From positions 3,315-67,314 of the forward strand of contig DASXOF010000133.1 of assembly GCA_036494495.1 (NCBI GenBank): a DNA stretch of 64,000 nucleotides. Reading direction: 5' to 3'. Position 1 is the first letter of the stretch. Every line of letters begins with the position of its first letter. This DNA comes from Solirubrobacterales bacterium (GTDB lineage Bacteria > Actinomycetota > Thermoleophilia > Solirubrobacterales > 70-9). The notes beneath the pieces are model-generated. The model ran no database searches. It was not told the DNA's origin and worked only from the letters and a program-made list of their open reading frames with translations. Made by a program: the position numbers and the translations under genes. Shown one piece after another: positions 11,435 to 19,789 of this stretch.

Positions 11435-12796
11435 TCAACCTGACTCCGCCGTCACTGCAAGTCGCTCCCCGGCGAGCTCCGGCAGCAGCGGCTGCAGGAC
11501 CCGGTTGGCGGTCAGCCCGAGGCAGCCGAGGTTGGCGAACCCCGGCCCCTGGCTGAGGCCGCCGAGGCCGGGGATGTGAAGTCGCGGCGAGAGGCCGCGC
11601 AGCTCCAGCGCCCGGCCGATCGGGACCTCGGTCCCCGGCGGCGTGTCCCAGACCTGACCGGCCTCGCGCTCGACCACGGCCCGGACCTCGTCGGAGAAGA
11701 GGCTGCGCAGCTGCGCCAGCAGGTCGAAGCCGGTGCAGTTGACGACGTAGTCGAACTCGGCCGCCACCACCCCGCCCGGCGCCTCGTACTCGAGGCTGAG
11801 CGCCTCACCGCTCGCGGCGAGGCCGGCGTGGAGGGCGCGGCCGACCTCGAACGAGGAGTGCCCGTCGCCCGACAGCGAGGCGATCACGCCGGCGTCGAAG
11901 ACGCCGCGGTCGGCGTGCTTGACGAAGTCGCGGCGGGCCTGCTGGTCGAGCCGTTCCCAGCTGACGTCGTCGGGGTCGGCGAAGACCCGGTTCTCGAGGA
12001 AGCTCTCGCCGCGGCTCATCGGCAGGAGCGGCGTGAAGACGGTGAGACTTGCGAGCGGCCGGAAGGCGCGGAGGAAGACGAGGGCGCTGAGGGCGCTCTC
12101 GCCGCCGCCGAGGATCGCGATCTCGACCTCCTCGTCCTCGGCGATGCCGGCGAACTCCGAGCGGCGGCTGTCGCAGTGGAAGAGCCGCGGCGCCGCCGCC
12201 GGGTCGTGCGGCAGGGCGCGGTGGACGCCCGGGCCGGTCAGCAGCAGGGCGCCGCCGACGTGGCGCTCGGGGTCGTCGGGCTGGCCGCGCTCGGTCACCG
12301 CGATCGCCCAACGCTCGGGGTCGTCTTCGATCGTCACCGACTCGACCCGGCCGTGCAGCAGCCGCACCCCCTCGGTTGCGCGCTCGAGCACCCAGCTCAG
12401 ATAGGCGCCGTAGTCGCGGTGGCGGACCGAGGGCGCGCCGGAGTTGACCCAGCCGGCGTACTCGCCGCGTTCGATCGCGTAGCGCTGCCAGCTGAACGGC
12501 AGGAGCGCCGCGTCGATCGCGTCGCCGGCGGCGCCGAACTGCCGGTAGCTGCGGTACGGGAAGCCGACGTCCTTGATCGGCGGGATCGCCAGCGGCTCCT
12601 CGCCGGAGGTCATCCCGTTGCGGCCGAGCCAGGACGCGGCGGGCTCGGTTTTCTCGACGATCGTCAGCGTCAGCTGGCCGAGGCCGAGCCGGTTGACGAC
12701 GTGGACCTTGGCGGCGATCGCCGCCGCCTTGGCGCCGGCGCCGACAATCAGGAGGTCGGCTTCCGGCGGCGCCTCCGTCTGGCTTGCGGTGCTCAT
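11435..12796 (-). CDS. FAD/NAD(P)-binding monooxygenase (lysine/ornithine N-monooxygenase-like, tentative)
   Basis: Two dinucleotide-fold motifs are present (LLIVGAGAKAAA and IAILGGGESALSA). ATG 12796 overlaps the P450 stop (ATGA). Confidence 0.6.
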   Translation of the reverse strand: MSTASQTEAPPEADLLIVGAGAKAAAIAAKVHVVNRLGLGQLTLTIVEKTEPAASWLGRNGMTSGEEPLAIPPIKDVGFPYRSYRQFGAAGDAIDAALLPFSWQRYAIERGEYAGWVNSGAPSVRHRDYGAYLSWVLERATEGVRLLHGRVESVTIEDDPERWAIAVTERGQPDDPERHVGGALLLTGPGVHRALPHDPAAAPRLFHCDSRRSEFAGIAEDEEVEIAILGGGESALSALVFLRAFRPLASLTVFTPLLPMSRGESFLENRVFADPDDVSWERLDQQARRDFVKHADRGVFDAGVIASLSGDGHSSFEVGRALHAGLAASGEALSLEYEAPGGVVAAEFDYVVNCTGFDLLAQLRSLFSDEVRAVVEREAGQVWDTPPGTEVPIGRALELRGLSPRLHIPGLGGLSQGPGFANLGCLGLTANRVLQPLLPELAGERLAVTAESG

Positions 12797-14085
12797 CAGG
12801 CGACCGGTTCGGCGATCACCAGGCCGCGCCTGGCGGGCGCGAAGGAGATCGCGGATTTCTTGATCGCCTCGCCGCGCCGCTCGGCCGGTTCGAGGCGGAC
12901 GCTCGCGAGCACCGTGCGGATCACCCGCTTCATCTCCATTTCCGCGTAGGAGGCGGCGAGGCAGCGGCGGACGCCGCCGCCGAAGGGGATCCAGGTGTAG
13001 GTGCCGGGCGGCGTCGCGAGGAAGCGCTCGGGGAGGAAGCGGAGCGGTTCGGCATAGTTCGCCGGGTCGCGGTGGACGAGGTGGATGCAGGGCGCGACCG
13101 TGGTCCCCGCCGGCAGCTCGCGGCCGGCCAGCCGCAGCGGCGCCAGCAGCCGGCGGACCACCACCGGCACCGGCGGCCGCAGCCGCAGCGTCTCCTTGAT
13201 CACCGCGTCGAGGTAGGCGTCGCCCTCGCCCGCCAGCACCTCCTCGCGGGTCCGGGCGAGCACGTCGGGGTTGCGCAGCAGCCGCTCGAAGGCCCAGGCG
13301 AGGGTGCTCGAGGTCGGGCCGTCGGAGAGCAGCGTCACCAGTTCGTCGCGCAGGTCGCGCTCGCTCATCGGCGAGCCGTCCTCGTAGCGGGCGCGGACCA
13401 GCATCGAGACCACGTCGCGGGGCTCCTCCTCGGGCTCGGCGCGGCGGCGGCGCGCCTCGGCGATCACCGCTTCCTCGACCGGCCGCATCGCCTCCCGGTA
13501 GCCGCGGCTGCGGGTCATCGCGCCGGGGCCGAAGGCGGCGAGCAGGGCGAGGTTGCGGGGGCTGTTGAGCCAGGCGGTGAGGCGGCGCAGGCGCTCGCGC
13601 AGGCCGTCGAGGCGGCGGTTCTCGCCGGAGCCGAAGACCGCCCGCATCACCACCTCCTGGGTGATCTCCTGCATCCGCGGCCAGAGCTCGAACGGCTCCC
13701 CCACCGGCCAGCGCTCGACTTCCTGCCGCGCCACCGTCGCCATCATCTCGGCGTCGGCCTGGACCGCGCCGCCGTGGAAGGAGGGCAGCATCAGCTTGCG
13801 CCGCTGCAGGTGCTCGGGTTCTTCCATCAGCATCACCGAGCGCGGGCCGAGGACCGGCCCCAGCAGCGGGTTGGCGAGGTCGACGCCGACCGCCTCGCCG
13901 GCGGTGAAGACGGCTTTGACGTCGGCCGGGTCGCTGAGGATCACCCAGTCGCCCCAGTGCATGATCCGCAGCGTGAAGGCGTCGCCGTACCGCCTGTGGC
14001 AGCGCTCCAGATAGGGCAGCGGCCGTTGCGTCCAGGCGACCGCCTGCATCGCCCGCGGCAGCCGCGGGCCGGGTGGCATGCTCAC
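12796..14085 (-). CDS. cytochrome P450
   Basis: The heme-thiolate loop is FGGGVRRCLAASYA and the ExxR motif is in KETLRLRPP. GTG 14085 overlaps the upstream stop; the alternative start is ATG 14079. Confidence 0.9.
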   Translation of the reverse strand: MSMPPGPRLPRAMQAVAWTQRPLPYLERCHRRYGDAFTLRIMHWGDWVILSDPADVKAVFTAGEAVGVDLANPLLGPVLGPRSVMLMEEPEHLQRRKLMLPSFHGGAVQADAEMMATVARQEVERWPVGEPFELWPRMQEITQEVVMRAVFGSGENRRLDGLRERLRRLTAWLNSPRNLALLAAFGPGAMTRSRGYREAMRPVEEAVIAEARRRRAEPEEEPRDVVSMLVRARYEDGSPMSERDLRDELVTLLSDGPTSSTLAWAFERLLRNPDVLARTREEVLAGEGDAYLDAVIKETLRLRPPVPVVVRRLLAPLRLAGRELPAGTTVAPCIHLVHRDPANYAEPLRFLPERFLATPPGTYTWIPFGGGVRRCLAASYAEMEMKRVIRTVLASVRLEPAERRGEAIKKSAISFAPARRGLVIAEPVA

Positions 14086-14405
14086 GCCGCCCGCTCCCGG
14101 CCCAGCCGGCGTTCGCGCTCGAGCCGGTCCATCAGCTCGTCCTCGGCCCGGCAGGTGGCGGCGATCAGCAGCTCGAAGAGGTTGGCGGTGAAGTCCGCCG
14201 GCAGCTCGACCGCGGCGCCGCGGTCGAGGTAGCGCCGGCGCACGACCTCGACCCGGTCGGGCTGCATCATCGCGATCTCGTGCTCGCTCTTGTAGACGGC
14301 GACTTCGCGGCAGATCTGGAAGCGCTCGCCGAGCAGGCGGGCGACCTCCTCGTCGATCACGTCGAGGCGGTCGCGGAACGGCTGCAGGCCGCCGGTCTCG
14401 CTCAT
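14082..14405 (-). CDS. AroQ-class chorismate mutase-like protein (candidate 4-amino-4-deoxychorismate mutase)
   Basis: The 107-aa product reads MSETGGLQPFRDRLDVIDEEVARLLGERFQICREVAVYKSEH...QPDRVEVV. ATG 14405 overlaps the upstream stop. Confidence 0.75.
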   Translation of the reverse strand: MSETGGLQPFRDRLDVIDEEVARLLGERFQICREVAVYKSEHEIAMMQPDRVEVVRRRYLDRGAAVELPADFTANLFELLIAATCRAEDELMDRLERERRLGRERAA

Positions 14406-19693: not shown

Positions 19694-19716
19694 CCCCCAA
19701 GGGCTCCGCTCGGAGA

Positions 19717-19789
19717 TGCACCGGCCGGGGCTCGAACCCGGATCTACGGCTTACAACGCCGTCCCTTTAACCGATTAAGGCACCGGTGC
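19717..19789 (-). tRNA. tRNA-Thr (anticodon UGU), 73 nt, CCA not encoded
   Basis: I folded the cloverleaf manually. The acceptor stem is GCACCGG/CCGGTGC and the D arm is CCTT-AATCGGTTA-AAGG. The anticodon arm is ACGGC-GTTGTAA-GCCGT. The T arm is CCGGG-TTCGAGC-CCCGG and the discriminator is A. Confidence 0.8.

Follow-up and report, generated by a model that had tools for sequence, protein, structure and literature searches.

The window analyzed in this study is a 64,000-nucleotide stretch of DNA from a Solirubrobacterales bacterium (assembly GCA_036494495.1), and the system in question is a minus-strand operon in which a tRNA gene precedes seven overlapping genes, the first of them encoding a paralogue of arginyl-tRNA synthetase (ArgRS). 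The genome amounts to 3.37 Mb in 200 contigs and is 95% complete; the window is our contig C133 and has a GC content of 73%. The tRNA gene (19717–19789, minus strand) was the only one found in the window by ARAGORN and Rfam (65 bits). It encodes a 73-nt tRNA with anticodon UGU, A73, a 4-nt variable loop, and an atypical D-arm. The ATG of the ArgRS-like gene lies at 19693, 23 nt past the tRNA, and the seven minus-strand open reading frames (ORFs) that follow the tRNA have a third-position GC content (GC3) of 0.90–0.96. The tRNA, the 23-nt spacer, and the seven coding sequences had been described in an earlier reading of the same DNA, hereafter the original prediction, and ARAGORN, Rfam, and the ORF coordinates confirmed them. 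That reading also placed a 4-nt overlap at every junction; five junctions do have ATGA/GTGA overlaps of this length, but the cytochrome P450 and monooxygenase genes at the end of the operon share only 1 nt (TGATG).

The Pfam matches of the seven ORFs were, in order, tRNA-synt_1d (weak), GATase plus Chorismate_bind, GNAT, Hist_deacetyl, CM_2, p450, and Lys_Orn_oxgnase, in agreement with the families originally proposed. The first gene (18008–19693) encodes the ArgRS-like class I synthetase paralogue of 561 aa, assigned through TIGR00456, alignment, and an AlphaFold model. It is followed by a fused PabA-PabB aminodeoxychorismate synthase of 719 aa (PabAB; 15852–18011; GATase, Anth_synt_I_N, and Chorismate_bind domains; TIGR00553), a single-domain GNAT N-acetyltransferase of 157 aa (15382–15855; Acetyltransf_1, E = 2e-15), a deacetylase of the HDAC/arginase fold of 327 aa (14402–15385; Hist_deacetyl, E = 3e-38), and an AroQ mutase-like protein of 107 aa (14082–14405; CM_2, E = 4e-17, 62.6 bits). 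The last two genes encode a cytochrome P450 of 429 aa (12796–14085; E = 2e-54) and an NbtG-like flavin N-monooxygenase (FMO) of 453 aa (11435–12796), recognized by its match to PDB 4D7E and by the weak Lys_Orn_oxgnase match. Downstream, a PQQ-repeat beta-propeller lipoprotein of 521 aa (9850–11415) has PQQ/PQQ_2 repeats and the lipobox AFAAGC; its gene starts 19 nt past the FMO stop and is preceded by GGAGGA, so that the lipoprotein, the strong Shine-Dalgarno sequence, and the 19-nt gap were all as first noted. All these genes lie on the minus strand.

The tRNA is a dedicated tRNA and not an ordinary tRNA-Thr. It is unlike the three other Thr tRNAs of the genome in the D-arm, acceptor stem, and discriminator; contig C167 bears another tRNA-Thr(UGU), of canonical appearance. 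Orthologous loci were collected from relatives and from 80 genome records, which gave approximately 60 loci in Solirubrobacterales. Nearly all of these ArgRS-like/PabAB loci had an almost identical 73-nt tRNA body, and in nearly all of them the tRNA adjoined the synthetase gene. The anticodon was UGU in 22 loci (the window included), UAA in 34, and AGU in three. The 73-nt tRNA with anticodon UAA lacks the long variable arm of tRNA-Leu, and it is therefore not a normal leucine tRNA. The stems differed among loci by compensatory pair changes, which supports the cloverleaf, and U33, A37, the 7-nt anticodon loop, G18G19, and the T-loop were invariant.

The body was present, in one copy each, in 49 of the 401 genomes of the order, and all 49 had the orthologous synthetase. 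It was detected in 48 of the 49 genomes carrying the ArgRS-like gene plus the window genome, and in none of the approximately 350 non-carriers of the order; G334 was the one carrier whose tRNA was missed by the search pattern. The anticodon was fixed within clades and changed at least four times on the maximum-likelihood tree of the synthetase, the root of which is uncertain. In family f3, the two halves of the cluster are divergently arranged and the tRNA is still inside the cluster; in several loci it has been relocated between the mutase and P450 genes, again within the cluster. The tRNA gene placed at the head of the operon in the original prediction is thus a dedicated one, tied strictly to the paralogue and bearing UGU, UAA, or AGU according to lineage. 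When metagenomes were scanned for versions of the body in which position 35 is a pyrimidine, as in stop suppressors and Arg types, the only return was one unrelated tRNA-Gly. Distant paralogues of the synthetase (31–41% identity) adjoin tRNAs with UCU, CCU, or UAA anticodons. The T-arm recurs in some of these tRNAs and points to a possible descent of the tRNA/synthetase pair from a tRNA-Arg(UCU)/ArgRS pair.

The first gene was correctly recognized at the outset as an ArgRS paralogue: the protein is a true, very divergent member of the ArgRS lineage. Its TIGR00456 (argS) score was 84.5 bits, under the equivalog cut-off of 261.65, and the canonical argS of the genome is encoded elsewhere, on contig C110 (423 bits on the same model); the two proteins are 26% identical over the catalytic core. 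AlphaFold modelling with 34 family members gave a structure with a pLDDT of 89. Foldseek matched it to full-length ArgRS structures, tRNA complexes included, with TM scores of 0.65–0.73, and the model retains every part of the ArgRS architecture, the C-terminal helical anticodon-binding domain among them. The HIGH histidines H124 and H127, the KMSKS-like Ser397, and about 15 other positions were invariant across the family.

The arginine pocket is different. We take the guanidinium-binding residues of yeast ArgRS to be E148 and D351, together with Y347. When the pocket was mapped by sequence alignment to 1BS2/1F7U, all 57 orthologues had Y/Q/N113 and A/S325 in place of the Arg-binding Glu and Asp, and Q321 in place of the tyrosine; W115 is a tryptophan specific to the clade of the window protein. 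The adjoining tRNA has G35 or A35 (UGU, AGU, UAA) and not the C35 typical of ArgRS substrates. Pocket positions also varied among ArgRS-like subfamilies with different amino-acid-modifying neighbours, and the catalytic scaffold remained constant. Because the ArgRS scaffold is kept and the Arg-binding residues are replaced, the enzyme looks catalytically competent but not arginine-specific. In one genome of genus g47 (G266:C1:269963–271724), the ArgRS-like gene has three in-frame TGA codons and is possibly a pseudogene; the special tRNA still adjoins it.

The biosynthetic genes point to aminodeoxychorismate chemistry. The fusion of PabA and PabB proposed originally was upheld, with a TIGR00553 (pabB) score of 365.7 bits, above the cut-off of 328.4, and the pabAB gene overlaps both of its neighbours by 4 nt. 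The AroQ-like protein scored 49 bits on TIGR01803 (chorismate mutase-like), under the cut-off, and matched E. coli chorismate mutase 1ECM weakly. Sequence does not separate mutase from pyruvate-lyase activity in this family, and we regard the protein as a candidate 4-amino-4-deoxychorismate mutase. The GNAT had weak NCBIfam matches to amino-acid and antimetabolite N-acetyltransferases, the closest solved relatives of the deacetylase were acetylpolyamine amidohydrolases, and those of the P450 were only generic (CYP51, CYP120, approximately 99 bits). The flavin monooxygenase of the original prediction is indeed a flavoenzyme, and its assignment can be narrowed to an NbtG-like, that is, lysine N6-hydroxylase-like, protein by a full-length match to PDB 4D7E (NbtG, L-lysine N6-monooxygenase; 208 bits, E = 2e-60).

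As stated before, there is no nonribosomal peptide synthetase (NRPS) or PapC-type dehydrogenase: the latter was found neither among the nine cluster genes nor in the flanks. The Pfam scan of the cluster proteins revealed no cupin domain, and the conserved gene set had no recognizable aminoacyl-tRNA-dependent transferase of the FemX, cyclodipeptide-synthase, or LanB/PEARL type. FemX-type transferases have a double GNAT domain, a length of about 330 aa or more, and a tRNA-binding helix (PMC12945691); the cluster GNAT, with 157 aa and a single Acetyltransf_1 domain, does not have these dimensions.

Two distant clusters, one in a Conexibacter metagenome-assembled genome (MAG) and one in a MAG labelled Acidobacteriota, retain the link between synthetase, PabAB, and mutase. 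Between them they add a class IV aminotransferase (fused to a GNAT in L069), an LDH-like dehydrogenase, and a fusion of the mutase with a VOC domain (CM-VOC); the LDH-like dehydrogenase and class IV aminotransferase occur together in L067. These additions complete a PapABC-like route, so that a 4-aminophenylalanine-type amino acid is most likely the product, being the most economical one. They fit the earlier proposal that aminodeoxychorismate synthase plus an AroQ mutase represent the p-aminophenylalanine route. The pairing of GNAT with deacetylase may mean that an intermediate is N-acetyl-protected or that the producer protects itself, and the presence of GNAT, deacetylase, P450, and N-monooxygenase beyond the PapABC set suggests a modified product. 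The version outside Actinomycetota (L069:5070–13254; MAG labelled Candidatus Onstottus arcticum) encodes PabAB, the class IV aminotransferase-GNAT fusion, an HDAC-fold protein, CM, an AsnB-like amidotransferase, and a methyltransferase. Its biosynthetic genes converge on the ArgRS-like gene, and no tRNA was detected within the 14.8 kb covered.

The whole gene set is syntenic in loci with 50–78% protein identity and stays linked even where the two halves of the cluster have become divergent. This answers the possibility of chance adjacency raised with the original prediction, since the set is conserved across genera and families and through rearrangements. The minimal core shared by all orthologous loci comprises the tRNA, the synthetase, PabAB, the GNAT, and the mutase. 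Most loci also have the deacetylase, P450, monooxygenase, and propeller; some lack the deacetylase and several lack the FMO. The propeller adjoins the cluster in most but not all orthologous loci, the rearranged ones included. Orthologous clusters were seen only in MAGs, some of them labelled Baekduia or Patulibacter.

The synthetase belongs to a wider family. A representative search returned 193 ArgRS-like clusters (50% identity) at E values up to 1e-30, and more than 2,000 metagenomic homologues of the protein were found. On metagenome contigs, an ArgRS-like gene was translationally coupled to a Lys/Orn N-oxygenase (L107), two such genes stood with methyltransferases, an Orn/DAP decarboxylase, and a DapD-like acyltransferase (L108/L109), and another stood with an aminotransferase and a methyltransferase (L110); no tRNA was detected on these short contigs. 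Paralogues with 33–41% identity and without PabAB occur beside UCU/CCU tRNAs (L007–L010, L068, L070–L072, L076, L078), some of which share the special T-arm; one of them, of the UCU type, is in the cultured Conexibacter stalactiti KCTC 39840 (L071). Genome G225 gave a weak paralogue match only, and none of the conclusions is based on it. This pattern of variable pockets on a constant scaffold is, at the sequence level, what diversified amino-acid substrates would look like.

Two further loci of this kind are in the window genome itself. On contig C169 (16681–23044; L111:4681–11044), a second ArgRS-like paralogue, 36% identical to that of the window, is followed by the alpha and B12-binding beta subunits of D-lysine 5,6-aminomutase; the opposite strand has a divergent 618-aa LeuRS/MetRS-like ORF, and ARAGORN called no tRNA anywhere on contig C169. 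On contig C117 (26570–30262; L112:8570–12262), there is a second cassette of the same logic as that of the window. It begins with an odd 75-nt tRNA (anticodon ACU) that was called as Ser although it has no long arm, and continues with a VioC/GntD-like Fe/2OG beta-hydroxylase, an extra AspRS-type class II synthetase, and a 363-aa protein whose Atlas model resembles ArgRS minus the catalytic domain (NrtL-like). Elsewhere in the genome there are four other class IIb-type (PF00152) matches.

The best reading of these data is that the operon is a self-contained supply-and-loading unit, in which a non-standard amino acid is made and loaded on its own tRNA. According to the family assignments, PabA-PabB would convert chorismate to 4-amino-4-deoxychorismate, which the AroQ protein would rearrange towards a 4-aminophenylalanine-type amino acid. 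Aromatization and transamination would be left to housekeeping enzymes here and would be carried out by the cluster dehydrogenase and aminotransferase in the distant versions. The GNAT/deacetylase pair may then handle an N-acetyl-protected intermediate, with the P450 and the NbtG-like N-monooxygenase decorating the product. Finally, the ArgRS-derived synthetase, which presumably no longer binds arginine, would esterify the pathway amino acid onto the tRNA encoded upstream; anatomy, co-occurrence, and the remodelled pocket argue for this step. The original prediction had a metabolite condensed with an amino acid, whereas this anatomy points to the amino acid made by the pathway itself as the one that the synthetase would load on the tRNA. 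We consider it probable that these steps together hold and that the private tRNA is thus charged by the paralogue with an amino acid that is made by the cluster and is not arginine.

A further step, the least certain of all, would take the charged tRNA into the ribosome when the operon is expressed. There it would compete with the normal isoacceptor and cause low-frequency insertion at ACA codons here and at UUA or ACU in other lineages. The unit would share its supply logic with the pyl system and its decoding logic with ProRSx/tRNAProX mistranslation. Several features speak for ribosomal entry: the intact elongator features of the tRNA, its discrete and clade-fixed anticodons with repeated switches into the Thr box, the lack of a known aminoacyl-tRNA transferase in the conserved set, the ProRSx/tRNAProX precedent, and deficits in cognate-codon conservation described below. 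The whole chain through low-level ribosomal insertion is nevertheless tentative, and we would put it a little short of an even chance. Somewhat more doubtful still is the broadest form of the proposal, in which Solirubrobacterales might run one or more conditional decoding channels for a self-made 4-aminophenylalanine-type residue at ACA, UUA, or ACU; this would be a 23rd amino acid of ribosomal synthesis, encoded ambiguously and not by a stop codon, within a wider family of ArgRS-derived pairs that differ in their amino acids.

Codon use was compared between the window genome and a genome with the UAA-type tRNA (G203; 2.4 of 2.88 Mb analyzed), which share 1,002 reciprocal-best orthologue pairs and 278,784 aligned codons. 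Cognate codons were set against their synonyms in a conservation test stratified by gene. In the window genome, the conservation of ACA as Thr was 0.69 of that of its synonyms (z = −3.8); in G203, this ratio was 0.96. Conversely, the ratio for TTA was 0.80 in G203 (z = −2.2) and 0.99 in the window genome. AGT, the codon cognate to the odd ACU tRNA of the window genome, had a ratio of 0.59 there, versus 0.85 for AGC, and AGT was close to AGC in G203. No deficit was seen for the equally rare TGT, CTA, GTA, and TCT. Cognate-codon conservation is thus reduced only in the genome that bears the tRNA, a weak but suggestive signal of translation.

Other results weigh against use in translation, or against the proposal as a whole. 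The deficits are modest and come from one pair of genomes, and ATA (Ile) had a deficit in the window genome as strong as that of ACA (0.64, z = −3.7); no odd tRNA matching ATA was found in this genome. The canonical tRNA-Thr(UGU) of the window genome coexists with the special tRNA, as does a canonical long-arm tRNA-Leu(UAA) in G203, G151, and G322. TTA of G203 was aligned to Leu in 47% of cases and ACA of the window genome to Thr in 42%, and TTA and ACA coincided at 0 of the 278,784 aligned codons; therefore, no conserved site-specific recoding is visible. Some loci have cluster genes in which a conserved Thr is encoded by the cognate codon. In the synthetase alignment, five columns, of which two belong to the C-terminal domain, vary together with the anticodon type, so that the conservation of the anticodon could reflect recognition by the enzyme and not decoding. 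Charging, product, and ribosomal insertion are predictions from sequence and models and are not proven.

Strict codon reassignment is refuted by the coexisting canonical tRNAs, the mostly Leu/Thr alignment of TTA/ACA, and the lack of coincidences. Conserved pyl-like recoding is not supported either, since no TTA/ACA coincidence and no covarying local target gene was found; lineage-specific recoded targets are possible. The eight window genes contain no ACA. A six-frame covariation search near the clusters, with a local sample too small to allow statistics, returned only the tRNA gene itself, and a scan for ORFs rich in the cognate codon gave only noise from non-coding frames. A hint at PabAB column 42 (ACA in UGU-type loci, TTA in one UAA-type locus) was not upheld genome-wide, nor were hints of TTA at an invariant Phe and of ACT at a Tyr/Phe column.

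The tRNA, charged with the amino acid of the cluster or with another one, might instead serve outside the ribosome, either donating the activated residue to a natural product (a small molecule or a peptide) or acting as the scaffold on which it is made, with a rare-codon anticodon serving only to limit accidental damage to translation. Steps that depend on aminoacyl-tRNA are well known in actinobacterial natural products (PMC12945691). The P450, N-monooxygenase, and secreted propeller are typical tailoring genes of natural-product clusters, which counts against insertion into proteins, and with the GNAT/deacetylase pair they resemble tailoring or self-protection functions; the coexisting isoacceptors and the mostly standard, non-coincident TTA and ACA codons agree with such a use. 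Small single-domain GNATs that act on aminoacyl-tRNA also exist, namely the TacT/AtaT toxin class. However, none of the FemX, cyclodipeptide-synthase, or LanB/PEARL-type enzymes belongs to the conserved set, the core that all loci share comprises only tRNA, synthetase, PabAB, GNAT, and CM, and the tRNA has retained every elongator feature over long divergence. UGU is moreover not the least harmful choice in the window genome, where TTA is rarer than ACA (20 vs. 84 aligned codons), and the reduced conservation of cognate codons is left to be explained. We regard this use as a serious possibility, not much less probable than the full chain through ribosomal insertion. A ligase with a tRNA cofactor is a more distant idea. 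Here the ArgRS-like enzyme would form an amide or ester, in the manner of MshC or the MetRS-like domain of hydrazine synthetases, and acylate an N-hydroxylated amine from the FMO, with the tRNA needed only for activation. ArgRS, like GluRS, GlnRS, and class I LysRS, does need bound tRNA to form the adenylate; the window FMO is NbtG-like, and an ArgRS-like gene is also coupled to a Lys/Orn N-oxygenase in the metagenome locus L107. In hydrazine synthetases, an N-hydroxylase is paired with an aminoacyl-tRNA synthetase (aaRS)-like domain (PMC12376268; bioRxiv 10.1101/2025.08.22.671884). Yet the cluster proteins have no cupin domain, the FMO is absent from several orthologous loci that retain tRNA and synthetase, and a mere cofactor would not be expected to preserve its anticodon loop or to switch among defined sense anticodons, so we judge the ligase unlikely.

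In another alternative, mistranslation with a standard amino acid, the pair would work like ProRSx/tRNAProX and insert a canonical residue at Thr/Leu codons, beside biosynthetic genes that are merely co-located. The ProRSx/tRNAProX precedent also has an AGU anticodon, the paralogue is derived from ArgRS, and related paralogues occur beside UCU/CCU tRNAs. The loss of the arginine-binding residues, the translational coupling of the synthetase to PabAB, and the linkage of the biosynthetic genes through rearrangements, also in the distant Conexibacter and Acidobacteriota-labelled MAGs, make this explanation quite improbable. The most ordinary account, a housekeeping tRNA-Thr that chances to lie upstream of a secondary-metabolite operon with an ArgRS copy as self-resistance gene, draws on familiar observations: genomic islands are often flanked by tRNA genes, and aaRS copies in clusters are often resistance genes. 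It is contradicted by the co-occurrence and anticodon data. The genome has its canonical tRNA-Thr(UGU) and argS elsewhere, the tRNA body bears a Leu anticodon but no long arm in other lineages and co-occurs exactly with the paralogue, and the paralogue is 26% identical to ArgRS and has no Arg-binding residues. We give this account hardly any weight. The supply-and-loading unit remains our preferred reading.

Known systems share parts of this design. In the pyl operon (pylTSBCD), as here, a special tRNA stands beside a dedicated synthetase and amino-acid biosynthesis genes, and the distribution is patchy and cassette-like. The synthetase of the window is of class I and ArgRS-derived, whereas PylRS is of class II; rare sense codons (ACA, UUA, ACU) take the place of a stop codon, and the chemistry is based on chorismate and not on lysine. 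Unlike in pyl, canonical isoacceptors coexist and no recoded target genes were found. In ProRSx/tRNAProX of Streptomyces and Kitasatospora, a Pro tRNA body with Asn or Thr (AGU) anticodons lies beside a ProRS isoform, and mistranslation was shown experimentally (PMC10404621). The constant tRNA body, the foreign anticodons including AGU and varying by lineage, and the distinct aaRS isoform next to it are common to both. Proline is still the substrate of ProRSx, to which no biosynthetic genes are attached; here the pocket is remodelled, the pair is translationally coupled to a seven-gene pathway, and mistranslation is predicted from sequence.

The PapABC enzymes of the chloramphenicol and pristinamycin clusters include a fused aminodeoxychorismate synthase, as here, and an AroQ-type mutase, for which the window has a candidate; the distant versions of the present cluster have the dehydrogenase and aminotransferase as well. 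The window differs in having no PapC homologue or NRPS and in its extra GNAT, deacetylase, P450, and N-monooxygenase. An engineered 21-amino-acid bacterium reportedly combined papABC with an orthogonal tRNA/synthetase pair. That construct resembles the window system in joining biosynthesis to a private pair, but the window system is natural and would use sense codons. Clusters with aminoacyl-tRNA-dependent enzymes (VlmL/VlmA, PacB, DhpH/DhpK, SbzA, cyclodipeptide synthases, PEARLs) also contain an aaRS paralogue, and valanimycin biosynthesis an N-hydroxylase; they use housekeeping tRNAs and a recognizable transferase (PMC12945691), in contrast to the private tRNA found here and the lack of any such transferase. 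From hydrazine synthetase (cupin plus MetRS-like domain), the cluster differs in having no cupin, and the partner N-hydroxylase is represented by the NbtG-like FMO.

The system thus combines features of pyl, ProRSx/tRNAProX, and PapABC and is a member of none. A full-text literature search returned nothing of relevance on an ArgRS-like/tRNA/PabAB system, on NrtL, or on tRNA oddities in Thermoleophilia, and the searched literature contained no characterized cluster with this gene set, in line with the original remark that the combination was not recognized as one. The system looks like a natural, apparently undescribed parallel to what has been engineered for genetic-code expansion. Should the charged tRNA enter the ribosome, the system would represent the first case in nature of a biosynthesized non-standard amino acid inserted at sense codons; it would be directly relevant to the ways in which genetic codes expand and would give synthetic biology an orthogonal class I pair ready for use. 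Should the tRNA instead function outside the ribosome, no earlier biosynthetic cluster would have had a tRNA dedicated to it. The hundreds of 50%-identity clusters of the ArgRS-like family, with their variable pockets and varied amino-acid-modifying neighbours, therefore make the family a genome-mining handle for amino-acid chemistry in abundant, poorly cultured soil actinobacteria.

Related sequences were present in soil data. A soil DNA run (X1) contained 91% of the sampled words of window positions 11435–19900. A soil metatranscriptome (X24) had contigs approximately 90–95% identical to several parts of the operon (within 11442–19389), one of which bridges the synthetase/PabAB junction (17933–18152); none of the listed pieces covers the tRNA. 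These contigs come from relatives and are compatible with transcription there, and they are no proof of a single transcript.

Upstream of the tRNA, an AT-richer intergenic leader (19790–20028, minus strand), read from the sequence, is presumably the promoter region. It contains a weak −35/−10-like pair (TTGCGT, 16 nt, TATGCT) at 19870–19843; a consensus promoter scan upstream of the tRNA gave no site over the threshold. Directly upstream of the tRNA, positions 20029–22521 (minus strand) encode the ATPase, permease, and family 3 binding protein of a polar amino-acid ATP-binding cassette (ABC) transporter, which is syntenic in two loci of genus g1 (L005 and L006). Beyond the propeller gene, the region 7097–9839 encodes Usp (plus strand), TetR, NUDIX, and RDD proteins. 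The Usp, NUDIX, and RDD genes have the same position in L005, as do NUDIX and RDD in L006.

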